A stretch of 64,000 nucleotides of DNA from a phage. Below the pieces are notes generated by a model. It saw nothing but the letters and a program-made list of their open reading frames with translations. It was not told the origin of the DNA and ran no database searches. The position numbers and the translations under genes were made by a program. The stretch lies in assembly GCA_024673055.1 (NCBI GenBank), contig GCA_024673055.1_4537.1. One strand, 5' to 3'. How positions within the stretch are numbered: the stretch's first letter is position 1; every line of letters starts with the position of its first letter. Positions 47,466-63,636 of this stretch are shown here, piece by piece.

Positions 47466-50400
47466 TTAGGTTGTTGGCACATCTACTACTGGCGTTGGGC
47501 GAATAACCGCAGTATTACCTACAGAAACATTACTGGAATCATTAGGTATGGTTTTAATTCTAACTCCAGCACTTGTAGGCGTTACAATTGGATCTGCAAT
47601 GTCTATTTTAACTGGGTTAGTCCACGTATCATTATCTTGATAAGGTGCACGAGTAATAACTGTGTCCAAATCTGCTCCACCTACACCAGCGCCAGGAATA
47701 CGGATACGTGTCCCTGCTGACAGAGGGTAATGATACAACCAAGAAGCATTTGTTGCTGTCCCGTTAGGAGTCAAGTTCTGTGTCAGGAAGGTATCTCCTG
47801 CCTGTGTAGCTCGAATACCGAAAGCTGGAATATCTGGAATATATGCCCCACTTGTTGTTACAAGGAAGAACGTATTATCCGCCTTGACTATCATATCACC
47901 TTTGTCAAACTCTTTCCCTGTTGGGAAATGCATTCCATCAATGTTTCGACTAGGATTAGGCTCTAAGTAATAAACTTTGCCCGTTGTCCCTACAATAGCT
48001 CCAATACCACCTGCGATATTGGTATACATATTAGCTTCAACATTACAGTTGACACGATGAATATCCGAGTAACGGCAACGGCTCCACTGTGGACGACCAG
48101 TAACCATCGTCTTGCCATCTGGGTAACAGTTTACGTTAACCATTTCAAGAACAGATTTTTCTCTACGGAAGAATCCATCATAAAATGTCCCTGGACCAGA
48201 TTCAGGTTGACCAACACAATCGAAGATATTACAGGTGATATTAGACATTGAAAGCCAAGAAGCTATACCGAACAACTGCAATGCAGCGCAACGAATATTT
48301 TCAAAGCTAACTCTGTTTTCATAACCTGGCCCAGCGGAAACTCCCGCAAAAACACGCCCAGTTTTGGTGTGAATGTTACGAACAGAATAGTTAAAACATG
48401 GATTTGAAGGTCTGCCCTGTGCCGGAACTACCGGATTACCCTCTTCGTCCAGAACTGCGTTAGTTCCCCACTCCAAATAAATCATACGGATATTACTTGC
48501 AAGTGTGCTACCGTCTGTTTTAGGCTCTCCATAAACACCGTCAATCGTAAAATCTTTACTTCCGTACATTACAACTGCGCCAGTTGCCAAACCTGTCCCA
48601 ACAGATACAGTCTGATCTGGATCGCCATGAATGTTTTCGATAGAGATATTACGACCAACTTCTACGTGGACAATCTGACGACAACGTTTTGCAAAAACGT
48701 TACGAATTGTAATATTCTTGCAATATTGATCATCAGGGATTCCGTAACCATATGGTCCTTTACCAGCTACACCGATACCGATACCCCAGTTGGACAGAGG
48801 AATAGGAGCGTTAGTCCCATCGATATTAGACAGGTAAATATTCTCAATCACACAACCATCGTCATAATGTTTATTGATGACGTTCAGTTCTATTGCATCA
48901 CCTTGCATGTCCATGAAGGTAAGGTTACGGAAGACACCACGTGTTACTGGTTCCCCTGTTCCTTGTTGAAGGATGCCATACAACCCGTTTTTAAAAGTAC
49001 AGTTATCAATTTCAAAAGTACCTGATATTGGGTTGCCTTGGAATACCAAGCTACCAACTTGACCTGCGCGAGGAGCACCGTCCCACAAACAATCGAACAT
49101 GCGCACAGCACCACCCCAATACATAACACGAGAGTTACGGAAAGTTGTGCCTTCTACTGTAGCATTTTGCACACGATAGTCGCGTTGACCACGGAACACA
49201 CCCCCACGCAAAGTGATACCTTGAATATCAAAAGAGCTTGTCGTGAAAGTCATATCGCAACCGTAAGCATCGAGAATCTTGCTTTTCGAAGCTTTTGCTG
49301 CTAACAGTGCCGCTTGGAAAGCTGCTTCTGGTGTGGTATAGGTAGTTGTATTGTTAGCAAATTCGGACAAGTAGACAACATCGAATAAATCGTTGTATGT
49401 TCCACCACGAGGGGTTAACAGTCCTTCTGTATTAGTCAGAACCCATGCATTTGGACCTAATCCTCCGCTCGTCTCCAAGGTATCGGAAGCCAAAATACTT
49501 TTTGGTAAACTTCCAGCCCAACGATAACGACCAGCGCCACGTCCAATCGTCTGATTTTTAGCTGTCAGAGTTACATTATTACCAAAGCTTGTAGGCAAAT
49601 GAACAAACTGTCCACGCTCAACAGCCAGTGCAGAAAGGTCTACAGATCCTCCAGAATAAGTCATTACTCCAGAAATAGACAAGGATGTTAAAGTGCCTGT
49701 AATGTTAGGAGGTAATGTGTAGGAAGACTGCGCTACCGGATCATACAGAGCTTTAATCCCTGTTAACGATTGACCTGCTGTTGCGTAAGCCACCTCATCA
49801 TCTAACAAACCATACTTACGAGCAATAGTTTGCAGAGGGACTTTATCCATGCTTTCTGTTAGTTCTTCCGTTTTTGTTTCTAAACTAACAAGACGGTTCT
49901 CTAGATTAGGATCTGTATCTGCTGAAGCTACGATTTTGCCAATATAAGCAAAAAGTTTGTTTGGCAGTCCTGTTGCAGGATCGTGTCCCAAAGGTTCAGA
50001 TAAGATGATCTTACTATCTTCTATACGGAAAGCTTCCCCCAGAACCTGAATAACACCATTGATCGTAACAATAGCACTATCAAAGATGTAAGGAGGACTA
50101 ATTACTGTTTCATAACCAGTTGCACCAGAATATACCCAAGGGGTGACTTCTGTTGCCAATTGTTCTGTCTTCAGTCCCCACAATACCCAGTTGTTATCTC
50201 CTACTGGAGTCCCTTGCATAGGGATTGGGTTAACCAATGTAGCGTTAGGGGCATAGTAATAACCGCTCAATACTCCATTCTGGAAATAACGAAGTTGGTT
50301 AAAAACTGTTTCGTTTGTGCCTTGCGCCCAATCCAATGGGCTTTTAAAGAAAAAGTTGTCAACAAGGGCTTTTCTCAGGGTTGGTATCAACCCTGATTCT

Positions 50401-50519
50401 GTTTCAATACTCTCTGTAGCACTTCCATTAATAACATCATGGAGTTGGTTAGATGAGAAAATAACCAGGTCTACGCCCTGTTCGAGAGACGTTGCTGGAT
50501 ATGTTGGGAATGTTGCCAT
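47466..50519 (-). CDS. tailspike/tail fibre protein with right-handed beta-helix (pectin-lyase-like) domain
   Basis: Periodic N/G/I/V-rich repeats typical of parallel beta-helix (e.g. NITIRNVFAKRCRQIVHVEVGRNISIENIHG). Confidence 0.7.
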   Translation of the reverse strand: MATFPTYPATSLEQGVDLVIFSSNQLHDVINGSATESIETESGLIPTLRKALVDNFFFKSPLDWAQGTNETVFNQLRYFQNGVLSGYYYAPNATLVNPIPMQGTPVGDNNWVLWGLKTEQLATEVTPWVYSGATGYETVISPPYIFDSAIVTINGVIQVLGEAFRIEDSKIILSEPLGHDPATGLPNKLFAYIGKIVASADTDPNLENRLVSLETKTEELTESMDKVPLQTIARKYGLLDDEVAYATAGQSLTGIKALYDPVAQSSYTLPPNITGTLTSLSISGVMTYSGGSVDLSALAVERGQFVHLPTSFGNNVTLTAKNQTIGRGAGRYRWAGSLPKSILASDTLETSGGLGPNAWVLTNTEGLLTPRGGTYNDLFDVVYLSEFANNTTTYTTPEAAFQAALLAAKASKSKILDAYGCDMTFTTSSFDIQGITLRGGVFRGQRDYRVQNATVEGTTFRNSRVMYWGGAVRMFDCLWDGAPRAGQVGSLVFQGNPISGTFEIDNCTFKNGLYGILQQGTGEPVTRGVFRNLTFMDMQGDAIELNVINKHYDDGCVIENIYLSNIDGTNAPIPLSNWGIGIGVAGKGPYGYGIPDDQYCKNITIRNVFAKRCRQIVHVEVGRNISIENIHGDPDQTVSVGTGLATGAVVMYGSKDFTIDGVYGEPKTDGSTLASNIRMIYLEWGTNAVLDEEGNPVVPAQGRPSNPCFNYSVRNIHTKTGRVFAGVSAGPGYENRVSFENIRCAALQLFGIASWLSMSNITCNIFDCVGQPESGPGTFYDGFFRREKSVLEMVNVNCYPDGKTMVTGRPQWSRCRYSDIHRVNCNVEANMYTNIAGGIGAIVGTTGKVYYLEPNPSRNIDGMHFPTGKEFDKGDMIVKADNTFFLVTTSGAYIPDIPAFGIRATQAGDTFLTQNLTPNGTATNASWLYHYPLSAGTRIRIPGAGVGGADLDTVITRAPYQDNDTWTNPVKIDIADPIVTPTSAGVRIKTIPNDSSNVSVGNTAVIRPTPVVDVPTT

Positions 50520-53116: not shown

Positions 53117-54604
53117 TTACACTCCATACTCGTAAGAAATGTTATCAAGGTCAAAAGAAGGGACAACATTATAAGCAGGAACTATATTATTCTCTGTATA
53201 TTTACTGTCATCCTCAGTATTAAGTTTAACATAAACACGAAGAGAAGTCAAGCGTCCAAAAGCAAGTGCTGCATAAATAACACCTTTGATTTGATCGTTC
53301 GTTACTGAAGAACCTAATTCAAAGTAAGCTTGCAGGTTTTGTAAAGCTTCTACGATGTTTTGTTTTTCTGTTCCACTTAAAGTTGTTCCGTTGACAGTTT
53401 GATAAACAAGTTTTACAGAATACATAGCAGAAGCACCAGGAGAGAAGCGAATAATTTCTTGTCCTCCATCTTCTGTTGTAACTGTTATGTTAGTTGTTCC
53501 GTGTGTCAAAGTGTTGATTGGTTTGGTTTTATAGATAACATTTGCAATTTCTTCTGCACTGCCACCATAAACTATGGTCTGGAAAGTCATAGCTGGAGCA
53601 TGTTCTTGATCGTGTAATGTGGGGTTATCGTAGATTTTCACTTTGGTAACACCATCTGTAAGCAGTAGTGCTTTCACAATAGCTGCTCGTGTCCCCGCAT
53701 TAGCTTCATCAACGTTGTCATTGAAACGAGAGCGGAATTCTGCGTCTGTCTCAACATCCCGACCAGGAGAAAATGAATAAAAGTTACCACTGTCAAGATA
53801 ACCTGTAAAGGTAGAAGATATCCCTGTAATAGACTCCACACCAACAGGATTGTATCCTTTCTCTGCTGCAACTACTGGAATTTCACTCCATTTGGTTCCA
53901 ACTGGAACACTGGCATAAAATTTGATAGGAGTTACTAGTCCCACTGGAGTATCGCTGGTTAAAGAAGTAAAACCAATTGATAAGTTACCTGAATCAGAAA
54001 ATACAAGACTACGATCAGCTTCTGTTAAATTCGCCTTGATAAAAGTTTCAAGATCGGCTATAAATGTAGAAGAACCAGGTGCAAGTGTTTTACTGTTTAA
54101 TCCTCCGTCTACCGCACTTTGTGCATAAAAAGTAATATTTGGAACACCTGTAGCAGTTGCATTAGCACGAGAGATTTGATAAGCTGCAATCTTAGCATTC
54201 AACATAGTTGGTGTGCTAACATAGTAGTTCATATCACTGTCAGAGTTGAAGTAAATATCCGTGCCTAGTTCATAAGTCCAAGCTGCTTTGTTATTACTCT
54301 TAACATATGCATAACCTGTACTTGCTGCTGCACCTGCTCGATAGAAACCGCGTTTAGAAAAGATTTCATCAAGATAAATACCTTCTGCACCATCCAGTGT
54401 TTGAGTATTATAAACACCTTGCATACCTTCCCACAATGTGTAATCTGTGTATGCAATTATTCTAAACAGTTGTCCGATCACAGTATCTTCCGAAGTGGCT
54501 GCATCTGCACCAAATGTGTTTTTTACTGCTGTCATGTAGTTGTTTAAAACATCGTCAAAAGTCGGGATTACAAATCCCGCATCTGTCAAACCATATTCGT
54601 CCAT
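53117..54604 (-). CDS. baseplate wedge protein (J/gp6-like), tentative
   Basis: Size, position and general resemblance to baseplate J-like proteins. Confidence 0.45.
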   Translation of the reverse strand: MDEYGLTDAGFVIPTFDDVLNNYMTAVKNTFGADAATSEDTVIGQLFRIIAYTDYTLWEGMQGVYNTQTLDGAEGIYLDEIFSKRGFYRAGAAASTGYAYVKSNNKAAWTYELGTDIYFNSDSDMNYYVSTPTMLNAKIAAYQISRANATATGVPNITFYAQSAVDGGLNSKTLAPGSSTFIADLETFIKANLTEADRSLVFSDSGNLSIGFTSLTSDTPVGLVTPIKFYASVPVGTKWSEIPVVAAEKGYNPVGVESITGISSTFTGYLDSGNFYSFSPGRDVETDAEFRSRFNDNVDEANAGTRAAIVKALLLTDGVTKVKIYDNPTLHDQEHAPAMTFQTIVYGGSAEEIANVIYKTKPINTLTHGTTNITVTTEDGGQEIIRFSPGASAMYSVKLVYQTVNGTTLSGTEKQNIVEALQNLQAYFELGSSVTNDQIKGVIYAALAFGRLTSLRVYVKLNTEDDSKYTENNIVPAYNVVPSFDLDNISYEYGV

Positions 54605-55151: not shown

Positions 55152-55390
55152 AACAACCTCTTTGTTTTTCTAAGTAAGCCCCTCTTTGGAGGGGCTTGCA
55201 GTGGTAGTGACAACACTTTGAGTTAGTACGATAGTAACTAAAGACAAGATTAACCCTGCTACGATATGTTTTCATCATTTTATCACATGGCGATGAGATT
55301 CGCTTGCAGGACATAGTTTGTGTGAGTCGTAATGAAGTCCATGATGTCACATTTATAATTTCCCCGCCGAAGCGGGGTTATTGTTTGCTC

Positions 55391-57490
55391 TTACATACTG
55401 CTTATGAACTCAAGCTCGTAAAGCTGAACACGGTCTGTTGTGATATTTGCCTCAAAGTACGTTCCATCGTAGCTAGCAAGTTTCACATCATTTATATGCC
55501 CAGCATAGGCATCATCATACATAAAAATAACCTGACCTGTTCCTTTACCTACATACTTACACGTCCAGGTTCCTAGGGTTGTAGTGTTATTCGCCAGAGC
55601 GATTGTTGTCTCTACACCGCCTGTAGCGATAACTCCATATGCAGTGTTAGCTACATATTTAATACCAAAGTAGTTACCTGACGCGACAGAGCCACAAACC
55701 AGATAACCCGCTAAGGCTGTGACACCTGATGGTATGGCAAATGCCACTGCAAATCCAAGGTAGTTAGAGTTCTCAAACTGCCTTACCAAACGACGCTCTC
55801 GCTTATATCTCTGGATTGCAGTACCCCCAGCAGTACCAGCTCGAACAACTAAGCCACCTTCTACATAGTATTCGATACCAGATCCAGTACCGGTTACAGT
55901 ATTGGTGAACTTGTCATAATCCTGAAATTGCGTATGGTGGCGGGTGGTATCTAGTCTGAAAGAGGATGTCACACCGTTGATGGATTTGGTGGCTGTTTCT
56001 ATAATGACTCCAGCCTGTACACCATCAACCCGTGATTGTGCCACTTTACCTATTGCCATACCAAGGTCATTAGCGATTATTGTCCCGCCGATAGCCACTG
56101 CTACCCACGATTTGAGCACACCAGACATAGGAGCTAAAGCACTACCAATGCGAGTGGAGTTTGACATGATGGTCCCACCATGTTTAACCACCATACCCTT
56201 GTCATTTATATCTGTCCCAAAATCACAACCTTCAACACTGATAGTAGAGTTATATGCCTCTATACACTTGTCGACTCCAACACCATTGAAAGAGCATTTA
56301 TTAACGGCCCCGCTAGTGCAACCGTAAAATTCAACTGAACAATTCTCGTCGCTGTGGGTTCGATTGGTAAAGTTCAGGTTTTCTAAGTTAGGTGAGTAAG
56401 GCGTACCACCGCAAGAAAATACTTGTGCAGATCTGTAACTTACTTTTGTGCGGTCTTTGGATTTACTGGTAATAACCAAAATAGCCTGTTGACCGGACTC
56501 AGGCGGGAAGTTTGGAGTACACCCTCGTTTATTACGAATCACAAGGTCTTCATCGTAGGTTCCATCGGAAACCTGAATAGTAATAAATTGCCAGTAGTTG
56601 TCCGGCACCGCGTCAATGGCGGCCTGCATAGTAGGGTAGTCCTCTGGCACGTTTACCGTAACGTTGTAGGTGTAGACGCCAGGGACGGTAGAGGAATCAA
56701 CCCCGTATTGTTTGATATAGTTACGATACGGATCACCCCCGCCAATTGAGTTGATAAAACCCTCAATGCGAACTTTATTTGTTGTTGAGTATATATATCC
56801 GTTTTCACCTACATCTACGCGGAAAAGACGCGGGATTGTCAAATCCTCTTTAATCTCAACAGGGACATTAATGTAAACGCGACCACGACCACTTGCTATA
56901 GCTCGCTTTAATGCCTGAGTATAGTCTGGAGCGATGGGATCGCCGTCTCTAACGTAAGCACGAATGTCATCGTTAACTTCATCTCGCCCACCTATAAGGG
57001 TGAATCCTTTGCTGCTAGTTAATTCGTTTCGCAATGAAGCATTACCAACACTAACCCATGCACCTGTTCCAACACCACCTGTTGATGTAGGGGTTGAGTC
57101 AGCGGGAACAGCTTTAGGGAAAGCACCATCCCATGTATAGCACTGTCCACCAGCAATGTGCCAAACAGCATCGGTTGAACTATTGGCTGTCGCCCCTTCT
57201 TCAAAGCTACCATCAACAAGAGTTAACCCAGCCTCGGCAAGACTACGACACCACTGTTCACGATCATTAAGAAGATTGTTATTCAACTCTTCCTGAACAG
57301 TATTACCATTTGAGGATTGTATTAAATCTGCTCCATCTGTATCTTTCAACTGGGTGGCTAAAACCACCCCAGTGTCAGTAAGAAATTTGGAAACTGTGCT
57401 TTTAACAGTCTTATCAGGTTGGTCTAAAACCAGGTAATCAGAATCATTAACTTTTGATGTTTCGGGTAAATTAGTAATTGTAGTTGACAT
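55391..57490 (-). CDS. tailspike protein with beta-helix domain
   Basis: Shares the W.G.FPK.VPA.STP..TGG module with the collagen-like fibre; N/G-rich beta-helix-like repeats. Confidence 0.7.
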   Translation of the reverse strand: MSTTITNLPETSKVNDSDYLVLDQPDKTVKSTVSKFLTDTGVVLATQLKDTDGADLIQSSNGNTVQEELNNNLLNDREQWCRSLAEAGLTLVDGSFEEGATANSSTDAVWHIAGGQCYTWDGAFPKAVPADSTPTSTGGVGTGAWVSVGNASLRNELTSSKGFTLIGGRDEVNDDIRAYVRDGDPIAPDYTQALKRAIASGRGRVYINVPVEIKEDLTIPRLFRVDVGENGYIYSTTNKVRIEGFINSIGGGDPYRNYIKQYGVDSSTVPGVYTYNVTVNVPEDYPTMQAAIDAVPDNYWQFITIQVSDGTYDEDLVIRNKRGCTPNFPPESGQQAILVITSKSKDRTKVSYRSAQVFSCGGTPYSPNLENLNFTNRTHSDENCSVEFYGCTSGAVNKCSFNGVGVDKCIEAYNSTISVEGCDFGTDINDKGMVVKHGGTIMSNSTRIGSALAPMSGVLKSWVAVAIGGTIIANDLGMAIGKVAQSRVDGVQAGVIIETATKSINGVTSSFRLDTTRHHTQFQDYDKFTNTVTGTGSGIEYYVEGGLVVRAGTAGGTAIQRYKRERRLVRQFENSNYLGFAVAFAIPSGVTALAGYLVCGSVASGNYFGIKYVANTAYGVIATGGVETTIALANNTTTLGTWTCKYVGKGTGQVIFMYDDAYAGHINDVKLASYDGTYFEANITTDRVQLYELEFISSM

Positions 57491-57498
57491 TTTTACTC

Positions 57499-59652
57499 CT
57501 ATATATAAAATTTTTGTGTTGTTACTAAATCTTCTCCAGATTTAGTAGCTAATGTAATTCCACTTATGGTAGCAATCTCAACATTTGCTTGTTTAAGAGT
57601 GATATCTTGCAAATAACAATTCAAAGGCACATTACCCATATAGAAAACTTGGGATTGAGAATTAACTACCGTGATAGAATCGTGCATTATTTGAGGATAG
57701 GCCCATATATATTGTGTAAGTCCATTGAACTTATTGGCGTTCAACACTATGTTACCTATAATCATTTTCCAAAGATACGTGCGGTAGTTTGATTCAGGAT
57801 CAAAGCCATACAAAGGTGCAAGAGTAGCATCTGGAACAAAACCTGCAAGATAGTGAATATCAGAATATTCAAAACCTAATTTTTCATGTGGTATGGTAAT
57901 TGCATCAAATGCTTTCATCATTTTACCTTCCAGAAGCCAGTCGTAACACTCCGAACAGTAAAAATCAAAAGCTTCAGGAATGTAGTAATCAGACGGAAAG
58001 TTAACTTTCTCCATCAATCCGTTGCCAATAATTGATGGTAAGAATGGAAGCAATGTTACTTTAGCTCCTGGATAAGTTGCTCTGGTGTCTGTTGCAAACT
58101 TTGTAACTCTTAACCCTAGTTTACGAGACAAAAATGCATAGTATTCGTCAAATGGTGTTCCTGTTTTATAATTATCTATTGTTCCTGCATCTTGTGCAAA
58201 TAAGCCTGTTTCTGTATTGAATGCCAGTTTGGTAGTGTAATCATATATACAAGGCATTTTACTTGCTGTATTATACCACCACCAAGGTTCACCAATTTGA
58301 ATTACGACTGGAATATTGTTAGCTTGAGAAATAGATGCTATTTTGTTAATAACATTTTGCAAATATTCCATGCCTTCGTCAATAGTTGGAGACAACACGT
58401 AACTAGGAGGCTTATACCCTGTTGCTGCAAGAGCATCGTTCCAATCATGCTGGACCCATTCAACAGGACAAACTGTGCTCATCAACTCAAAACTTAAAGA
58501 GTTCATTATTGTGTAACCCTTCTCGTTCGCTATAGAATGGAAACTATTTAGCCAAGCTTCTGTAGCTGGATTCAGGAAGACAGATCTATTTAAAGCCCAA
58601 GATGTTCCGTTCCATGAGAACTCATAATAGTGAGACATTCCGTTGTAATGGTTAATCATTCCACGATAACCTAGTGCATATGTATTATAAATAACTCTCT
58701 CTGGAGTCAGGTTATACATATCATCATAAGATGTGCACATGCGAATATCATGTTCAGGCTGGACAAGGTTGCTGACTTTCATCATACTGTAACCAGAAGT
58801 AGGTTCAAGAAGAGTGAAAGTAAACCAAGCCTCTTGACTGGCAATAGGTACAATCTCTTCTATTTCTTCATACCTTGCTGTAATCAAAGAGAAGAAAATA
58901 TTATCTACAGCACTCATATCCAAAGGAATATCATTATTAGGGCCAGAAAAGATATTACCAAAATCTAACTTTATTGTGGCTGTTTTACCATCTTCTGAAA
59001 TATCTGAAGCGTAGAATCCTAAACTGACATAATGAACACTTTTATCCAGGAGAGTTACAGTCAAAGTCGGCACCAAAGGTTCTTCTTTAAAACCTGGCAT
59101 GTTTTGACTAATTTCCATTTTAAACCAAAGTTTCTCTGAACTTAAATCTGTGTGAGGCAAATACCCAACACCTTTATGGTCATATTTGTCAACTGTACTC
59201 CAGATAACCCCTGCCAAACCTGCTGTTGTTCTGTTTACAAATCTTGCAGTAAAAGAGTCTCCATGAGATACAATAGAACAACTTTCCGTTGCTTGAGAAT
59301 CTATTGTCCAATACATAGGAGAGAACATTTTAACGTCTTTTGTAGTCCAAGTTATTGGAGTAGTATTTTCTTGGATAGTAGTTATAATACAATTGATGGT
59401 TGTTTCAACCATCATGTTATTTTGACTAATCCCTGAAACTTGGAGGGAGAAGTTAAGATCTATTGAGTTCTTTGGTCGTTCAAATACTTCAACCACAATA
59501 GTAGCAGAATCAGCATCATCAGGGAACACAAGTGTTCCCGATTTTGCAATATAATCTCTACCAGCGACTGCTGTTCCGTCAACAGTCGTGTAGTTAAATG
59601 AACTCGCATTTACTCTCTTGTCTCGCGTGACAGTAAATATAGCTTGTTTCAT
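57499..59652 (-). CDS. virion-associated protein with N-terminal Calx-beta-like domain and large putative carbohydrate-active domain
   Basis: YTTVDGTAVAGRDYIAKSGTLVFPDDADSATIVVEVFERP matches Calx-beta pattern. Confidence 0.6.
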   Translation of the reverse strand: MKQAIFTVTRDKRVNASSFNYTTVDGTAVAGRDYIAKSGTLVFPDDADSATIVVEVFERPKNSIDLNFSLQVSGISQNNMMVETTINCIITTIQENTTPITWTTKDVKMFSPMYWTIDSQATESCSIVSHGDSFTARFVNRTTAGLAGVIWSTVDKYDHKGVGYLPHTDLSSEKLWFKMEISQNMPGFKEEPLVPTLTVTLLDKSVHYVSLGFYASDISEDGKTATIKLDFGNIFSGPNNDIPLDMSAVDNIFFSLITARYEEIEEIVPIASQEAWFTFTLLEPTSGYSMMKVSNLVQPEHDIRMCTSYDDMYNLTPERVIYNTYALGYRGMINHYNGMSHYYEFSWNGTSWALNRSVFLNPATEAWLNSFHSIANEKGYTIMNSLSFELMSTVCPVEWVQHDWNDALAATGYKPPSYVLSPTIDEGMEYLQNVINKIASISQANNIPVVIQIGEPWWWYNTASKMPCIYDYTTKLAFNTETGLFAQDAGTIDNYKTGTPFDEYYAFLSRKLGLRVTKFATDTRATYPGAKVTLLPFLPSIIGNGLMEKVNFPSDYYIPEAFDFYCSECYDWLLEGKMMKAFDAITIPHEKLGFEYSDIHYLAGFVPDATLAPLYGFDPESNYRTYLWKMIIGNIVLNANKFNGLTQYIWAYPQIMHDSITVVNSQSQVFYMGNVPLNCYLQDITLKQANVEIATISGITLATKSGEDLVTTQKFYI

Positions 59653-59660
59653 TTTACCCC

Positions 59661-62537
59661 TTACTCGGTAACGTCCACACTAATGTTTGCCATTGTCAAA
59701 ACAGTAAGTGCAGGAATATTGCTCGAATCCAAAACAGGTGATGCATTTTGGGGATTAAGTTTTTTGTATAAAGCATACAACCCAAAACCACGTAACAACT
59801 CTCCAGCGTGGAAGCCAAAGAAGACTCCGTTATCACTGTCTGGTCTAGGAGCAGCACTCCAACAACCATTCATAACGTGATTAGGACCAAGAACAATATA
59901 GTTTTCCTGAATAAGTTCAAAACAGCGGTCTGCTACTATTTTAATGTTAGGAATTTCTGAATCATATCCAGCCATCCCCATTATAGCACATCCCGCCATA
60001 AAGAGCGCAGACATGTGACTTGTAAAGTCATCTACAGGCGCAGCCACTTCTCCGTTGGGATAAAATATTGTTGGTGTTCTTCCTTCGTTGTTATCTTGGA
60101 ACCACTTCAGGTAGTTGATCCAGTTTTTACAAACTGTTAAAAGTTTTTCAGGAACTTCGGCTCCTCGTCGCTTTAGTTCGTATACCGTATGACACGCACA
60201 GAAGAATGCTCGTGCTTCATAACCATCCCAAGCTTTATCGTTCCAATGATACATTGTGAACTCATTTTTGTTTCCATATTTATGAGCATCCCAACGATCC
60301 CAAACATAAGCTTGTGCCATTGGCCCAGGCATTACAGGGGCAAACTTATTATAAAACCACATTTGTGAATCATATAAAAAGTCTATACTGTTGTTCATAC
60401 GAACCCAGTCAATATCTCTCCCTTTAAAACAATATAAGGATGGGTATTGATAACCTGGGTAAGGAATACCACGCCAACCGTCATATAATGCTGTGTTAGG
60501 ATCACTAATATTGGAAAATGGAATGATTCCTGGAGTATAATTCAAACTGTCAAGTTTGTAGTCCAGTATTGTACAATCTCCAAGTTTTGCTGTATAAGGA
60601 TTTTCAGATGAAACTGTAACCCTGAAATACATTGTGTAATCATCACCAGCGGCTGAAGAATACAAAGATGGGATATCGTTAACACAATAAAAATCGATTG
60701 CCCCTGTCAAGCCATTTGCAGGTTCAGAATCCAATGCAATGTTGATCTGATCAACAGCAGTCAGGTTTATTGACGAAGGTTTTGTCTCTGTGTCGTTATG
60801 ATCGGGTTGCCAAGTGCTTAATTTGAAATCAGCAGGACTTAAAGCTTTAGTAACCCATGTAGAATTTGTTTTTTCTAACATGGCCCACCATCTCCAACCT
60901 GCGGAATCCGTAATAGTGATGTTAAAATCATCTGCGTATGAACGATATGTAATAGATTTTAAATTGGCTGTTTTAGTTGGTGTTAACCAAAACCCAACAG
61001 TAAAACCACCATCTGAATCCATATTAGCAGAAACTATCTGATCACTATTTGTCCCAGCAATACCAGTTGCATATTTATATTGTATCACAGTATTGCTTCC
61101 CCAGTCAACAATAATTCTGGGTTCAGCAATAATATATACACCACCTCCAGGAGGTTCTGTGCGCATAAAACTAGATAAAGGTATATCCATCTTAGTCATA
61201 TTAGCTGCACCAAGAGGTAAGCCACAACGATATGTCACTGTGTCTGTTTCACTCTTAGTTTTGCTTAATTCTAGCTCTGGACGGAAAAGAACACCTTCCC
61301 CTGCATCATCTACACCTTGAAACTCAATACGCAGTTTTGAATTCTGATCTACTCTGAACCAAACTGCCTGTTGTTCTAGAGTTGTTTGTGCTGAAACATC
61401 TTGGCGAATTACTGTGTATCCTAATTCGTCACGAGAATATTTAGGTATTGCTGTAGATGGGTATGAGTAATCATACGAGATACCATCTGTAAAAGGAATT
61501 ATTGCTGTCGTAGATCTACGGAAGAATTTATCAAACATATCGATGTTTGAGTAGTCTTGACACAACAATAAAGAAGATTGCCAGCAAAGCCAGTATTTTC
61601 TCTCTCCTGTGATCTGATACATCAAGTAGTTTGCATCACACCACCACGTTTCAGCATCGGAAGCATTATCTTGATAACCTAACCCTACCGGAACGTTTAC
61701 AGGACGGTTATGCCACATCTCATTACGCTTAAGCAGATATCCACCGTGTTCTACAGGGTTGCATGTAGCGTAGTTGAATTTATAATCACCGTTCACAGAA
61801 GCATTTTTAAGTTGCACTGTTCCATATTCTGCGAAGCTGTGACCTGTAGATAAAATGTTACCATCCCAATCAACTTTACGTCCTAGACGATCTATAATCC
61901 ATTCAACGTCCCACTGATCTCCGTATTCTTTCCAGTTGGTTGAACCATCTGGATTAGTTGCATAAACTGTTGCGTTAACGGAGTTCCAACCAAGATTGCC
62001 ATTGAAAGCAAACCAAGCTTTATCTAAGTATTCCCCCCAATGCGGTGCACCTTTAGGAATAACAGTCCTTCCGTTAATCCAAGTCATCATGCTACCTTTG
62101 AACCCACCGTGCGTAGGATACCCATCATCTGTGAGAGGGTAATGTGCTAAACGTGGTTCTTTACCATTGATGATCCAGTTGGGACGATACTTAGCCGGAG
62201 GATCAGGAATAGGTTGGCCCCCGAAGAAGTGATCTATATAGGCTTGCCAATACTTCTCGGCAGATTCAAGATATTTTTTATCCCCTGTAGCCAAATATGC
62301 ATAAGCAAAACCAGTGATAAGCACAGATTGACCTTCGGTAGTAGCGTCACCGTTTGGTTGCCCTTCCTGCGCTGTCCAGTTAATAAAGTGTCTGTTGTTC
62401 GCCAATACGTTTTGTGGGTTGATAATGTAATGCTGAACCGTAGGATCTATGGTAAGCCCAGTATTTCTTTCCAAAAACTGAACCAACCCTTCAATCAACT
62501 GAAACGTGTTGTCAATATTGTGCTTAACTCTTGACAT
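59661..62537 (-). CDS. large structural protein (958 aa), possible polysaccharide-degrading domain
   Basis: Long ORF in structural operon; Trp/Tyr-rich segments; function not resolved. Confidence 0.55.
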   Translation of the reverse strand: MSRVKHNIDNTFQLIEGLVQFLERNTGLTIDPTVQHYIINPQNVLANNRHFINWTAQEGQPNGDATTEGQSVLITGFAYAYLATGDKKYLESAEKYWQAYIDHFFGGQPIPDPPAKYRPNWIINGKEPRLAHYPLTDDGYPTHGGFKGSMMTWINGRTVIPKGAPHWGEYLDKAWFAFNGNLGWNSVNATVYATNPDGSTNWKEYGDQWDVEWIIDRLGRKVDWDGNILSTGHSFAEYGTVQLKNASVNGDYKFNYATCNPVEHGGYLLKRNEMWHNRPVNVPVGLGYQDNASDAETWWCDANYLMYQITGERKYWLCWQSSLLLCQDYSNIDMFDKFFRRSTTAIIPFTDGISYDYSYPSTAIPKYSRDELGYTVIRQDVSAQTTLEQQAVWFRVDQNSKLRIEFQGVDDAGEGVLFRPELELSKTKSETDTVTYRCGLPLGAANMTKMDIPLSSFMRTEPPGGGVYIIAEPRIIVDWGSNTVIQYKYATGIAGTNSDQIVSANMDSDGGFTVGFWLTPTKTANLKSITYRSYADDFNITITDSAGWRWWAMLEKTNSTWVTKALSPADFKLSTWQPDHNDTETKPSSINLTAVDQINIALDSEPANGLTGAIDFYCVNDIPSLYSSAAGDDYTMYFRVTVSSENPYTAKLGDCTILDYKLDSLNYTPGIIPFSNISDPNTALYDGWRGIPYPGYQYPSLYCFKGRDIDWVRMNNSIDFLYDSQMWFYNKFAPVMPGPMAQAYVWDRWDAHKYGNKNEFTMYHWNDKAWDGYEARAFFCACHTVYELKRRGAEVPEKLLTVCKNWINYLKWFQDNNEGRTPTIFYPNGEVAAPVDDFTSHMSALFMAGCAIMGMAGYDSEIPNIKIVADRCFELIQENYIVLGPNHVMNGCWSAAPRPDSDNGVFFGFHAGELLRGFGLYALYKKLNPQNASPVLDSSNIPALTVLTMANISVDVTE

Positions 62538-63010
62538 TAAATAACTCCTGCTAAAACTAAGCTACCTGTCCAAGTTGCACCATTATCATAACTGATAAAC
62601 TCAAAAGTGTCTGTTGCACCTTGACGATAACTCAAAACTGGGGAACGACCAAAACTCCATTTTACAGAAGAAGGCCATACGACTTTATTTGCGCCACTTC
62701 CTTGACGCAAAGCTAAAGTAAAGTTTAAAACTGCATTCGTTGCTACTGGAATATTAGTAAAACTAATTGTGCATGTTGCAGAAGATAAAGTTGCCGAAAA
62801 ATATTCTGCTGAACTAATATCTAATGCCAAGGTGCTAGTTACTGTTCCACGTGCATTTAAACGGTTTCTAGTTACCCCTGCACCACTCAACAGCACTTTC
62901 AAAGAAGTCTTCTTTGTTATTCCAGCCTGATCTGTTACAAAGAAATCTGTATCAGATACAGAGGTTGTTTGTGTAAGATCAGAAACTTTGATCGTAGTTA
63001 AATCTGCCAT
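62537..63010 (-). CDS. baseplate/tail-fibre-adaptor-like protein (157 aa)
   Basis: N-terminus D.T....DTDFFVTDQ similar in pattern to the N-terminus of 55391-57490. Confidence 0.45.
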   Translation of the reverse strand: MADLTTIKVSDLTQTTSVSDTDFFVTDQAGITKKTSLKVLLSGAGVTRNRLNARGTVTSTLALDISSAEYFSATLSSATCTISFTNIPVATNAVLNFTLALRQGSGANKVVWPSSVKWSFGRSPVLSYRQGATDTFEFISYDNGATWTGSLVLAGVI

Positions 63011-63636
63011 TATTCTTCTACTCCTGTCATAGCTGTTATACCGAAATTATTGTTTGTAGCTAATGCATCACCTTTTTCGTTAACCATGATTCTTTCCCCT
63101 GCTGACTCTGTAGACCATTCATTCCACCAAGTAGAGTAGGTATCACGTGGCAAACCAACAAAGTTGATAAAGCGATAAAGTCTATTCGAATTCTCAACAA
63201 TACTGTAAGCTTCACAAATGATCGCTGCATTGTCTTCACCAGCTTCAGGGTAAATAAACTCTTCAGAAGGTTGAGTATTGAATATGGATGTTACTGTATC
63301 TGCTCCAACTGTCACCATAACTGTCATTGAGTAATAACGTTGGTCCATGTCATAAGCAGATTTATAACTGTTTATTGTATCTATGTAAACGTTTTTGGCA
63401 ATCTCCGCTAAAAATATTCTGTCTACAATATCTTTCTTTCTAGCAACACCAATAATCTCTTGTAAGTAAGGAACACCGAAGTTAGTATTTAAAAACCACT
63501 CTCCACGATACGTGTTCAGAGTTATCCCAAGAGTTTGTGCTGCAATTTCTGTTCTGGTTGTGGTGAGGACCAAATCCCCATCATCCATGATGAGGTCGTT
63601 GTTTGGTCCAAGTTTTAAGTCAAAAGGGATTCCCAT
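63010..63636 (-). CDS. baseplate wedge protein, gp25/GpW-like (tentative)
   Basis: YRGEWFLNTNFGVPYL resembles the GER...P.FG block of GpW/gp25-family proteins. Confidence 0.4.
   Translation of the reverse strand: MGIPFDLKLGPNNDLIMDDGDLVLTTTRTEIAAQTLGITLNTYRGEWFLNTNFGVPYLQEIIGVARKKDIVDRIFLAEIAKNVYIDTINSYKSAYDMDQRYYSMTVMVTVGADTVTSIFNTQPSEEFIYPEAGEDNAAIICEAYSIVENSNRLYRFINFVGLPRDTYSTWWNEWSTESAGERIMVNEKGDALATNNNFGITAMTGVEE

Follow-up and report, generated by a model that had tools for sequence, protein, structure and literature searches.

Two conserved proteins of a Phapecoctavirus baseplate locus: an N4 sheath-related candidate glycan-recognition module and its putative platform

Phage phi92 is a contractile myovirus (PMC13450770). 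A review that cites Schwarzer 2012 includes two of its proteins, gp141 and gp142, in a table as putative glycosidases (PMC5380687). Neither protein was located in the cryo-EM study of phi92. In phage rV5, the orthologue of gp141, i.e., gp42, was detected in virions (PMC3606486), and gp34, the orthologue of gp142, is not mentioned in the supplementary proteomics tables for this phage. The third system of relevance is phage N4, which depends on the NGR/NfrA system (PMC8669472) and whose gp64 and gp65 have been described solely as a sheath with a structural and receptor-binding role (PMC13434306). N4, the Vequintavirinae and the phi92-like phages all need wecB and nfrB, which amounts to a need for the NGR glycan, and share the NCTSP module (PMC8669472, PMC8594841, PMC12548472); a 2026 preprint is also cited for this requirement (bioRxiv 10.64898/2026.04.02.716166). 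The NGR predictions in that preprint are given just for Vequintavirus, Justusliebigvirus and Enquatrovirus, and not for any Phapecoctavirus, and our search of the literature found no test of the NGR dependence of a Phapecoctavirus. In some Stephanstirmvirinae, resistance mutations are in genes other than nfrB.

The window analyzed here, a stretch of 64,000 nucleotides of phage DNA, belongs to a Phapecoctavirus and shows ~99% nucleotide identity with phage Ro121c4YLVW and annotated Phapecoctavirus genomes. Two of its genes, both starting with ATG, code for proteins of 717 amino acids (positions 57499-59652) and 958 amino acids (positions 59661-62537). An earlier note made from the DNA sequence had given these coordinates exactly, leaving the strand, which is the minus strand, unstated. 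The two genes are separated by an 8-nt gap that holds a Shine-Dalgarno sequence. The start of the 958-aa gene overlaps by 1 nt with an upstream gene for a 157-aa protein (62537-63010, minus strand), and another 8-nt gap separates the 717-aa gene from a downstream gene for a 699-aa tailspike (55391-57490, minus strand). The genes are tightly packed in one operon; a scan for promoter-like and terminator-like sites revealed no enrichment. Short plus-strand ORFs over both genes (59152-59436 and 62214-62534) were taken as spurious.

The phi92 gene order gp139-140-141-142-143…150 is reproduced gene for gene in the window. The 157-aa protein is the orthologue of phi92 gp140, annotated as ‘tail fiber protein’ (phrog_9017, E 2e-68, and synteny), and is a possible partner of the 958-aa protein. 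The 699-aa tailspike (Tail_spike_N, E 4e-22; a weak Pectinesterase match; synteny) occupies the slot of the endosialidase gp143 in phi92 and is likely a variable depolymerase of the same branch. The neighboring tailspikes carry a TSP1/Gp66-type N-domain. The two genes discussed here lie between a homologue of the gp25-like sheath initiator (63010-63636) and a Baseplate_J wedge gene (53117-54604), and their assignment to the baseplate region in the earlier note thus stands. In the window, as in phi92, the 958-aa gene comes after the 157-aa gp140-like gene, which itself follows the sheath initiator, whereas in rV5 its orthologue is directly downstream of the sheath-initiator homologue. Moreover, the rV5 orthologues of the two genes are not adjacent, ORF34 being located elsewhere in the same baseplate/fiber locus.

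The 717-aa protein (57499-59652, minus strand) is the orthologue of phi92 gp142, whose gene position it matches exactly, and of rV5 ORF34. It is 99.7% identical to the Ro121c4YLVW protein, 76.8% to phi92 gp142 and 43% to rV5 ORF34. Its AlphaFold2 model (pLDDT 90.1, pTM 0.84) is globular and multi-domain, and comprises an N-terminal Calx-beta domain, an NCTSP_N beta-sandwich and a (beta/alpha)8 barrel, an architecture shared with phi92 gp142, rV5 gp34 and the BASEL ‘lateral tail fiber with sugar deacetylase domain’. The beta-sandwich covers residues 107-292 (58777-59334, minus strand; PF23844, E 2e-16, 60.1 bits) and the barrel residues 299-658 (57679-58758, minus strand; TIM-barrel_NCTSP, PF23845, E 5.6e-79, 266.1 bits), the latter match spanning model positions 1-346 of 348. 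The description of the large domain as Trp-rich, made in the earlier note, is modestly true: tryptophan accounts for 2.2% of the residues in the whole protein and for 2.8% in the barrel, some of it in an invariant EPWWW motif. Less apt was the attribution to an uncertain family, as the protein belongs to the NCTSP family of N4 gp64/gp65, for which the literature provides a genetic link to the NGR glycan.

The NCTSP_N domain and barrel together are the single-chain equivalent of the N-terminal part of N4 gp65 plus gp64. In profile searches, the 717-aa protein matches gp64 with an E value of 1e-89 and gp65 with 2e-38, the NCTSP_N domain aligning to gp65 residues ~45-345. A Foldseek comparison with gp64 (9lc0_M) gave an E value of 1.7e-21, a TM score of 0.65 and an rmsd of 2.6 Å; the match to chain 9lc0_I had an E value of 1.2e-15. 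The gp65:gp64 heterodimer (PDB 9lc0, 9yf4) has the homologous NCTSP_N domain and barrel with the same invariant motifs. The differences lie in the context: the 717-aa protein is one chain with a Calx-beta N-domain and belongs to a contractile-tail baseplate, whilst N4 gp65 has ~960 further residues wrapping a non-contractile tail. For N4, the match to the barrel model is divided between two chains, with one piece in residues 374-416 of gp65 and the other in residues 109-407 of gp64.

In GenBank, relatives of the 717-aa protein are labeled ‘non-contractile tail sheath’, ‘lateral tail fiber protein’ or ‘Calx-beta domain protein’. The first of these names is a misnomer, because the module sits on a contractile-tail baseplate, and a role as non-contractile sheath was rejected for this phage, as a contractile sheath is encoded: the genes of the nearest genome include that for a true contractile tail sheath, as well as those for the tube, hub and wedge. 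Thus, NCTSP membership by sequence and HMM holds, but the functional name does not carry over. Searches for beta-helix tailspike hallmarks (Beta_helix, Pectate_lyase, Tail_spike_N) yielded no Pfam match in either the 717-aa or the 958-aa protein; matches of this type belong to the neighboring 699-aa and 1017-aa tailspikes, and the predicted folds of the two proteins consist of barrel and sandwich. An NCBIfam scan of six proteins gave no family name, the sole match being a far-sub-threshold Calx-beta in the 717-aa protein.

The family-invariant motifs of the barrel are YDD310-311, HYxGMS335-340, SFE389, QIGE455PWWW, SE568CYD, GFV and WAYPQ. They are unchanged in 32 relatives, down to 27% identity, and the pocket residues (YDD, E389, GE455PWWW and E568) are kept in E. 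coli phages, Acinetobacter chromosomal genes and GTA-type tail fusions. Even in very distant relatives, the barrel has kept its acidic and aromatic pocket invariant. The idea that ‘GMSHY’ is a convergent motif specific to NGR was rejected; the motif belongs to the barrel of the family as a whole and recurs in Acinetobacter and GTA-type relatives.

The 958-aa protein (59661-62537, minus strand) is the orthologue of phi92 gp141 and rV5 ORF42 and corresponds to the ‘tail protein’ of PHROG 2871 (phrog_2871, E 0), from which, as from phi92 gp141 and rV5 gp42, it shows no substantive difference. Identity amounts to ~83% with homologues of Justusliebigvirus (phi92-like) and to 35% with those of the rV5 type. 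The family was found in 534 phage records. Many of these phages lack an NCTSP module and, therefore, a fixed partnership with that module is not general. The protein contains 3.6% tryptophan, and its AlphaFold2 model (pLDDT 87, pTM 0.82) is globular and multi-domain. Tandem or internal repeats were found in neither gene, at the DNA or protein level, which, together with the confident globular models of both proteins, bears out the suggestion in the earlier note that the 958-aa protein is enzyme-like rather than a repetitive fiber.

As judged from the helix pattern in the model, the core of the 958-aa protein seems to be a helical module of six hairpins into which CBM-like sandwiches are inserted. 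The N-terminal helical part (residues 1-120; 62178-62537, minus strand) contains the conserved motifs NNRH and TTE68GQ70 and helices at 7-24, 67-84 and 87-104, and is proposed to form, in the predicted structure, the first hairpins of such a barrel. It is followed by a beta-rich insertion (residues 121-285; 61683-62177, minus strand), recognized by secondary structure and containing 6% tryptophan, and by a central helical hairpin (residues 286-336; 61530-61682, minus strand; helices 293-310 and 313-330) with a D294-A-E296 motif, of which D294 is kept in at least 90% of the sequences in a deep alignment. The second insertion is a CBM/ConA-like beta-sandwich (residues 337-665; 60543-61529, minus strand), all-beta in the model and with an invariant D544; it has local Foldseek matches to CBM11 (1v0a) and CBM22 (4xup) and a weak Laminin_G_3 match. 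The C-terminal part (residues 666-930; 59748-60542, minus strand) is mostly helical, with six helices between 711 and 927, conserved D723-S-Q725, W746 and R776, and local Foldseek matches to Cel48F and GH116. A disordered tail (residues 931-958; 59664-59747, minus strand) ends the protein. Conserved in the family are E68, D294, D723 and R776; in the predicted helical core, E68 and D294 are located at helix N-termini and D723 lies inside a helix.

Like the six-hairpin (alpha/alpha)6 glycosidases of families GH76, GH88, GH127, GH8 and GH48, the 958-aa protein has long helices, eleven in number, in hairpin pairs, and its hairpin sequence motifs align with those of GH76 in the same order: the N-terminal hairpin matches GH76 structure 4c1s, and the next GH76 hairpin matches residues 286-336. 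In contrast to these glycosidases, the helices are interrupted by the two large beta-domain insertions. The best HMM matches, to GH76 (E 1.3e-3; 18.8 vs. 25.9 bits), C5-epim_C, GH127 and GH88, are sub-threshold; residues 44-107 are the segment that gives such matches to GH76, the C5-epimerase C-terminal domain, GH127 and GH88. A profile of the family against the PDB reached GH76 with a non-significant E value of 0.058. Thus, no significant match to a glycoside-hydrolase family was obtained for this protein (best E values 1e-3 to 0.07, all below curated cut-offs), nor any significant match in Pfam at curated cut-offs or in PDB sequence and profile searches. Whole-chain searches of the model gave nothing meaningful in the PDB (TM ≤ 0.13) and, in BFVD, only uncharacterized phage tail proteins, and Pfam scans of the most distant representatives of the family revealed just accessory Ig-like and anchor domains and no catalytic family.

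How the two proteins may relate to each other is suggested by natural fusions. In two independent cases, P0100 and P0261, the 958 module is joined to the NCTSP_N domain and the barrel; the junction in P0100 corresponds to residue 108 of the 717-aa protein, so that only the Calx-beta domain is left out. In other fusions, the 958 module is combined with GH8 or an SGNH esterase, and in relative P0297 an SGNH esterase is inserted within the region of the second beta-sandwich insertion. The cargo domains of the relatives attach at the C-terminus, whilst at the N-terminus there are anchor domains of the P2 gpI or lambda gpM type. Throughout, the 958 module is intact, with anchors added N-terminally and glycan-active domains C-terminally. 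This pattern suggests a platform, the 958 module, with cargo. Branched tailspike adaptors (gp37 of K1E/K1-5, TSP2/TSP4 of CBA120 and gp66-gp63.1 of G7C) are comparable in being platforms that carry receptor-binding or depolymerase modules, but no sequence or fold relationship of these adaptors to the 958-aa protein was found.

Overall, both genes probably code for conserved proteins of the virion that belong to the multivalent adsorption apparatus of myoviruses of the phi92/rV5/phAPEC8 type, acting as a glycan-recognition module and its platform. The 958-aa protein would be a baseplate-anchored platform built around a glycosidase-like helical barrel of six hairpins with CBM-like sandwiches. 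Docked on or beside it via the Calx-beta domain, the 717-aa protein would recognize, and probably cleave, a polysaccharide of the host surface. Homology with phi92 and N4 points to the NfrB/NfrA-made NGR glycan as this polysaccharide, the use of which would let the phage cross the O-antigen layer to the LPS core, which would be bound by the short tail fiber.

The main alternative is that both proteins are non-catalytic, i.e., structural adaptors or lectin-like binders in which enzyme-like folds have been recruited as scaffolds; the 717-aa protein would then do no more than bind the glycan or NfrA, and the 958-aa protein would simply link tailspikes to the wedge. We consider this less probable, though a serious contender. 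It agrees with the description of N4 gp64/gp65 solely as a structural sheath and receptor-binding protein, with the adaptor-like behavior of the 958 module, which occurs joined to anchors of the baseplate or tail and bears other domains, with its lack of a significant glycoside-hydrolase match, and with the conservation of its family in phages of many hosts, which is unlike typical depolymerases. However, invariance of the barrel pocket across distant relatives is typical of active sites and not of sites that bind differing receptors, cells have a standalone homologue that is part of no virion, and the conserved acidic residues E68, D294 and D723 of the 958-aa protein sit on helices of the predicted core. 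The cellular homologue is encoded on the Acinetobacter chromosome, and its standalone occurrence argues for an autonomous activity. As for the earlier note, its proposal of virion-associated enzymes that degrade or adhere to glycans is supported in so far as both proteins have carbohydrate-enzyme-like folds and are encoded in a virion adsorption locus, and the predicted structures are not purely structural folds devoid of clefts, since the barrel keeps its invariant acidic/aromatic pocket. Catalysis, however, is putative for both proteins; no enzymatic activity has been reported in the literature for members of either the NCTSP or the 958 family.

If the barrel is an enzyme, the type of reaction has to be considered. 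The BASEL and NGR papers assign a ‘poly-GlcNAc deacetylase domain’ based on Phyre2 (PMC8594841, PMC8669472), which would make the 717-aa protein a deacetylase tail fiber that removes acetyl groups from NGR or ECA, much like the gp63.1 esterase of G7C in its action on O-antigen. The structural neighbor PgaB is indeed named a deacetylase, and full-length PgaB (4f9j, 4f9d) is among the Foldseek matches. Yet, the similarity falls on the isolated C-terminal domain (4p7l, 4p7n, 4p7q; TM 0.59-0.61, with 0.61 for 4p7l) and not on the CE4 part, and this domain is a GH153 glycoside hydrolase, distinct from the N-terminal CE4 deacetylase (PMC5933820). Moreover, no CE4 (Polysacc_deac_1) or SGNH match was found in Pfam at E ≤ 0.1, and the top 50 Foldseek matches include no described CE4/polysaccharide deacetylase except full-length PgaB. 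The CE4 assignment was rejected for want of a NodB HMM match and of CE4 structural neighbors beyond full-length PgaB, and the structural comparison lends no support to the BASEL label; we regard the deacetylase reading as highly improbable. The closest non-phage structural neighbor of the modeled barrel is the dPNAG hydrolase domain of PgaB, with which it shares the (beta/alpha)8 fold. In the model, conserved acidic residues are located at or just past the predicted strand ends, and in PgaB, D326/D328, D364, H473-D474 and E585 line the active-site groove and central pocket. Sequence similarity, however, is not detectable: Pfam matches at E ≤ 0.1 are to NCTSP and Calx-beta only, with none indicating GH153 membership, and PgaB is not among the PDB sequence/profile matches even at E ≤ 10. 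Also, the catalytic His-Asp of GH153 has no obvious counterpart, the 717-aa protein having the invariant Gly-Glu455 (QIGEPWWW) at the corresponding motif.

The earlier note also proposed a role of the Calx-beta domain in calcium binding and adhesion. The motif itself, at the start of the 717-aa protein, was correctly recognized: residues 4-82 (59407-59643, minus strand) match PF03160 with an E value of 9e-11 and 42.3 bits, i.e., above the cut-off of 27, the region is all-beta in the model, and the PDB sequence matches include Calx-beta domains of Na/Ca exchangers, which bind Ca2+. That these features make the protein a calcium-dependent adhesin is nevertheless very unlikely. The domain is missing from the Acinetobacter homologues, N4 gp64/gp65 and the tail-anchor fusions P0192 and P0189, and it is exactly the part omitted from P0100, where a covalent link takes its place; it is thus dispensable in natural fusions and cellular homologues. 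In addition, the acidic cluster at the end of canonical Ca2+-binding domains is, when compared by eye, largely missing (…VEVFERPKNSIDLNF…). In phage fibers, attachment to the virion is normally the task of the N-terminal domain, and the Calx-beta domain is proposed to be the N-terminal docking domain of the 717-aa protein.

A more far-reaching version of the platform-and-module reading, which we advance as a proposal and consider doubtful as a whole, combines three parts. A non-covalent complex of the 958-aa and 717-aa proteins would be the split equivalent of the fusions P0100 and P0261 and would constitute the fiber I ‘arm’ or fiber II of phi92-type baseplates. Both proteins would be active enzymes, the interrupted six-hairpin barrel and the NCTSP barrel representing two glycoside-hydrolase families absent from CAZy, and the NCTSP barrel would cleave the NGR poly-ManNAc-type glycan. 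As a corollary, the N4 barrel would be built in trans, gp65 contributing beta1-alpha1-beta2 and gp64 the rest.

The window itself is largely ordinary: both proteins are already catalogued as phi92 gp141 and gp142, and their genes here are near-identical copies that add nothing new by themselves. The interest lies in the families. Phages of this group are popular candidates for therapy, as O-antigen diversity does not keep them from infecting many strains of E. coli, and the gp142-type module is the best candidate for bypassing the O-antigen via the conserved NGR glycan. For host-range engineering, and for understanding resistance via nfrA, nfrB and wecB, it makes a difference whether this module acts by binding, hydrolysis or deacetylation. 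The 958 family is among the most widespread uncharacterized tail modules, repeatedly bearing glycan-active cargo, and a place and function for it would fill a gap left by the 2026 phi92 structure.

The two long open reading frames described in the earlier note, encoding proteins of 717 and 958 amino acids, were recovered at exactly 57499-59652 and 59661-62537, and both are located on the minus strand. Together with their neighbors, they form a head-to-tail array with hardly any spacing: the upstream 157-aa gene overlaps the 958-aa gene by 1 nt, an 8-nt gap with a Shine-Dalgarno sequence separates the 958-aa and 717-aa genes, and 8 nt separate the latter from a downstream tailspike gene. A scan for promoter-like and terminator-like sites revealed no enrichment. 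Over its full length, the DNA of the window shares 98-99% identity with ~60 deposited Escherichia coli Phapecoctavirus phages, the best genome match being vB_EcoM-Ro121c4YLVW, where the annotations are “non-contractile tail sheath” and “tail protein.” Gene order from gp139 to gp150 in phage phi92 matches the window gene for gene. For the 717-aa protein, identity amounts to 76.8% with phi92 gp142 and 43% with ORF34 of rV5. Both proteins are near-identical copies of catalogued genes. Neither contains tandem or internal repeats, in line with the earlier view that they are not repetitive fibers; their Trp contents are 2.2% (717-aa protein) and 3.6% (958-aa protein). Some 20 GenBank records of “Campylobacter phage” with C. 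jejuni as host (e.g., MG065645, MG065652, and MG065690) contain a homolog of one gene or of both, at the identity levels expected of E. coli phages of the rV5 or phi92 type, which suggests that these records are mislabelled or contaminated.

The position occupied in phi92 by the endosialidase gp143 is taken in the window by a different tailspike of 699 aa (55391-57490, minus strand) with a Tail_spike_N domain and a weak pectinesterase-like match. This looks like an allelic swap of a variable depolymerase between otherwise syntenic loci. A 1017-aa tailspike (47466-50519, minus strand), the counterpart of phi92 gp150, has the Tail_spike_N segment in common with the 699-aa spike; its PHROG match is to the family “colanic acid degradation” (E 3e-282). 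Just downstream of the stop codon of the 699-aa tailspike gene, a perfect GC-rich hairpin (CCCCGC-CGAA-GCGGGG; 55362-55377) is found within a 239-nt gap, the only sizeable intergenic gap of this gene block; it may be a terminator or an RNA-stabilizing element. Over the whole window (1-64000), the GC skew reverses at two points, close to 6 kb and 43 kb, in keeping with blocks of opposite transcription direction; from ~43 kb onward, every structural and adsorption gene is on the minus strand.

The interpretation of both proteins as putative glycosidases or glycan-targeting fibers is already in print. A review table citing Schwarzer 2012 lists phi92 gp141, the ortholog of the 958-aa protein, and gp142 as putative glycosidases among five fiber/spike proteins (PMC5380687; also PMC10269720), and N4 Gp64 was reported in the BASEL paper to be homologous to the conserved “lateral tail fiber” of Vequintavirinae and relatives (PMC8594841). 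Sellner et al. found that N4, Vequintavirinae, and phi92-like phages require wecB and nfrB, i.e., the NGR glycan and not ECA, and pointed to “homologous glycan deacetylase tailspikes” (PMC8669472). In the proposal of Junkermeier and Hengge, ManNAc is polymerized by NfrB and the polymer is exported by NfrA (PMC8669469). Independent genetics confirmed that Vequintavirus needs nfrB and nfrA and a Justusliebigvirus-like phage nfrB, while resistance mutations against other Stephanstirmvirinae fell in other genes (PMC12548472); no test of NGR dependence in any Phapecoctavirus was found in the literature. In a 2026 preprint, the gp142-type protein is named as the receptor-binding protein for NGR in Vequintavirus and Justusliebigvirus, based on a 59-76-aa match to N4 gp65 with the sequence GMSHY, which was read as convergent evolution (bioRxiv 10.64898/2026.04.02.716166). 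In the 2026 cryo-EM study of phi92, the wedge, hub, sheath initiator, and fiber III (gp147) were modelled, the fiber I arm and fiber II were left without protein assignment, and gp141 and gp142 were not mentioned (PMC13450770). Thus, the earlier reading was essentially right but not new, since family and likely role were already known.

The Calx-beta domain noticed at the N terminus of the 717-aa protein was confirmed by Pfam at residues 4-82 (above threshold, E 9e-11). It is followed by NCTSP_N at residues 107-292 (above threshold, E 2e-16) and TIM-barrel_NCTSP at residues 299-658 (E 5.6e-79, model positions 1-346 of 348), so that the label “uncertain family” no longer applies to this protein. 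A PDB sequence search matched it to N4 Gp64 and the N4 “non-contractile tail sheath” gp65 (9lc0 and 9yf4), and the family profile detected gp64 with E 1e-89 and gp65 with E 2e-38. The GenBank name “non-contractile tail sheath” is a misnomer transferred by homology, as the phage studied here is contractile-tailed. The AlphaFold2 model is confident (pLDDT 90.1, pTM 0.84), and its best Foldseek matches are N4 gp64 (E 1.7e-21, TM 0.65, rmsd 2.6 Å) and gp65, followed by multi-domain glycosidases combining a beta-sandwich with a TIM barrel (GH31, GH2, and others). [quoted passage not shown] Within the top 50 structural matches, the description “deacetylase” is borne only by full-length PgaB, which carries an N-terminal CE4 deacetylase and a C-terminal GH153 hydrolase domain (PMC5933820), and CE4 or SGNH signals were absent from the Pfam results at E <= 0.1. 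The label “deacetylase” is rejected here as probably an artifact of PgaB's name; the fold assignment, as corrected from the model, would be GH153-like.

Several barrel motifs are invariant family-wide, i.e., YDD(310-311), HYxGMS, SFE(389), QxGE(455)PWWW, xE(568)xYD, GFV, and WAxPQ, and they are positioned at the ends of predicted strands or immediately behind them. The motifs are kept in 32 relatives with identities down to 27%, including Acinetobacter chromosomal proteins and fusions to GTA-type distal-tail (DUF2460) or hub-attachment domains. Because these acidic and aromatic residues persist across such different hosts, the predicted pocket is more reminiscent of an active site than of a surface that binds one particular receptor. 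GMSHY itself corresponds to residues 338-342 (58627-58641). In an alignment of the barrel family, G-M-S is invariant, and the full motif is present in some Acinetobacter and DUF2460-fused relatives. Being conserved across the family, it is a core motif of a homologous barrel, and the reading as an NGR-specific convergence is rejected; what it marks is the fold of the barrel or its active site, not specificity for NGR. The Calx-beta domain is accessory: only rV5/phi92/phAPEC8-type proteins have it, and both the Acinetobacter forms and N4 gp64 and gp65 lack it.

In Acinetobacter baumannii, a 623-aa protein consisting of NCTSP_N and the barrel, with all barrel motifs intact, is encoded by a standalone chromosomal gene (L007:9001-10872 and L008:9001-10872). 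Its neighbors are a catalase, an alcohol dehydrogenase, a PLD-family gene, and a chaperone-usher pilus operon, and no phage genes are present within 9 kb. The context is identical in the two assemblies examined, and 17 further similar places were reported. The protein has no obvious signal peptide and is named “phage capsid protein” or “non-contractile tail sheath protein” by NCBI. Since this homolog is standalone, chromosomal, and without phage genes nearby, the NCTSP family also exists outside virions.

Whereas the window protein contains the whole barrel in one chain (57679-58758), the barrel model is split over two proteins in N4. In the N4-species phage OLB145 (L003:2484-7918), it was matched by two segments that complement each other without overlap: model positions 4-46 fall on gp65 residues 374-416, which include YDD…GMSHY, and positions 60-347 fall on gp64 residues 109-407. 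Profile alignment reproduced this split, and only ~311 of the 415 gp64 residues align to the 717-aa model in Foldseek. The first part of the NCTSP module heads the long gp65 chain. In the virion, gp64 and gp65 form a heterodimer (PMC13434306). The split suggests that this heterodimer may share one barrel completed in trans; alternatively, the two proteins could have two complete barrels with complementary divergence.

The 958-aa protein yielded no match in Pfam, NCBIfam, or PDB sequence searches and belongs to PHROG 2871 (“tail protein”). Its large family is conserved over the full length and comprises 534 phage records; at 50% identity, there are 182 representative clusters. Identities are 83% in Justusliebigvirus (phi92-like), 74% in SSE121, 54% and 42% in the jumbo phages phAPEC6 and SPN3US, 43% in podovirus 7-11, 35% in rV5-type phages, and 32% in Vibrio phages; members also occur in 53-kb Salmonella myoviruses, Erwinia phage phiEa21-4, and Aeromonas phages. 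The rV5 virion proteome contains the ortholog gp42 (PMC3606486). Chromosomal copies in Enterobacter and E. coli are located inside a siphovirus-type prophage structural module. In one such element (L010:10001-12823), the gene for a 940-aa relative, 53% identical, is flanked by the head genes on one side and by those for the tape measure and tail tip on the other; therefore, the module is not confined to myovirus baseplates.

The AlphaFold2 model of the 958-aa protein is also confident (pLDDT 87, pTM 0.82). Its series of 11 long helices (in 7-24, 67-104, 293-330, and 711-927) is broken by a beta-rich insertion at residues 121-285 and by an extensive beta-sandwich region at 337-665. Whole-chain Foldseek gave no global PDB match, and a BFVD search returned only uncharacterized phage tail proteins. 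Locally, Foldseek matched it to the sandwiches of CBM11 and CBM22 as well as to two (alpha/alpha)6 glycosidases, Cel48F and GH116, which, with the PgaB-like barrel of the 717-aa protein, bears out the enzyme-like, glycan-related character anticipated earlier. Residues 44-107 gave four convergent sub-threshold Pfam matches, i.e., GH76, the C-terminal domain of glucuronyl C5-epimerase, GH127, and GH88, all of which are members of Pfam's six-hairpin glycosidase clan. In addition, hairpins 80-107 and 307-333, which follow each other in the protein, align through the family profile with a pair of consecutive hairpins in a GH76 structure. Polar residues surviving in a deep alignment (down to 21% identity) are E68/Q70, D294, D723/Q725, R776, and D544, of which E68, D294, and R776 are at helix N termini in the model. 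From the helix pattern, these matches, the hairpin alignment, and the surviving polar residues, we infer that the protein may be an interrupted six-hairpin barrel with CBM-like insertions.

A link between the two proteins is provided by natural fusions of the 958-type module to the NCTSP module, which arose independently on two unrelated metagenomic phage contigs (L002:6691-11364 and L009:7001-12388), one SU10-like and the other rich in DUF7941 genes. In the SU10-like podovirus contig, the gene directly after the head-tail adaptor encodes a 1557-aa protein (P0100) with a full 958-type module, followed by a part that is 51% identical to residues 108-689 of the 717-aa protein; the junction at residue 108 means that only the Calx-beta domain is missing. 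The 1795-aa fusion of the other contig (P0261) has the same order. Other 958-family members carry a genuine C-terminal GH8 domain (P0277), a GDSL/SGNH esterase inserted into the sandwich region (P0297), or a glycine-rich domain (P0093), and N-terminal anchors are a P2 gpI wedge domain (P0086) and a lambda gpM-type domain (P0357). The module is collinear and complete in all fusions examined but P0297, where it is complete but split by the esterase. The NCTSP module is elsewhere joined to DUF2460 or hub-attachment domains. In the simplest model, the 958-aa protein would be a baseplate-anchored platform with its own glycosidase-like core and the 717-aa protein its cargo, with the Calx-beta domain replacing the covalent link. 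However, the two genes are not adjacent in rV5 and each family is widespread without the other, which argues against a fixed partnership.

Taken as a mechanism, both would be virion proteins at the baseplate periphery. The 717-aa protein would recognize, and probably cleave, a conserved surface polysaccharide, by homology NGR, allowing the phage to cross the O-antigen layer before the short fiber engages the LPS core. The 958-aa protein would hold it in place, perhaps along with other modules, and may have a glycan-binding or glycan-processing role of its own. The analysis establishes the homology, the domain architecture, the pattern of conservation, the fusions, and the synteny; catalysis, substrate, physical contact between the two proteins, and their place in the virion are deduced. 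We consider this mechanism reasonably probable. The main rival, in which both proteins are non-catalytic binders or adaptors, seems less likely; the invariant pocket of the barrel speaks for the catalytic reading. What the analysis adds to the biology of these families is the proposed correction of the fold from deacetylase to GH153-like, the platform-plus-cargo model suggested by the fusions, the possible split barrel of N4, and the standalone homolog in Acinetobacter.
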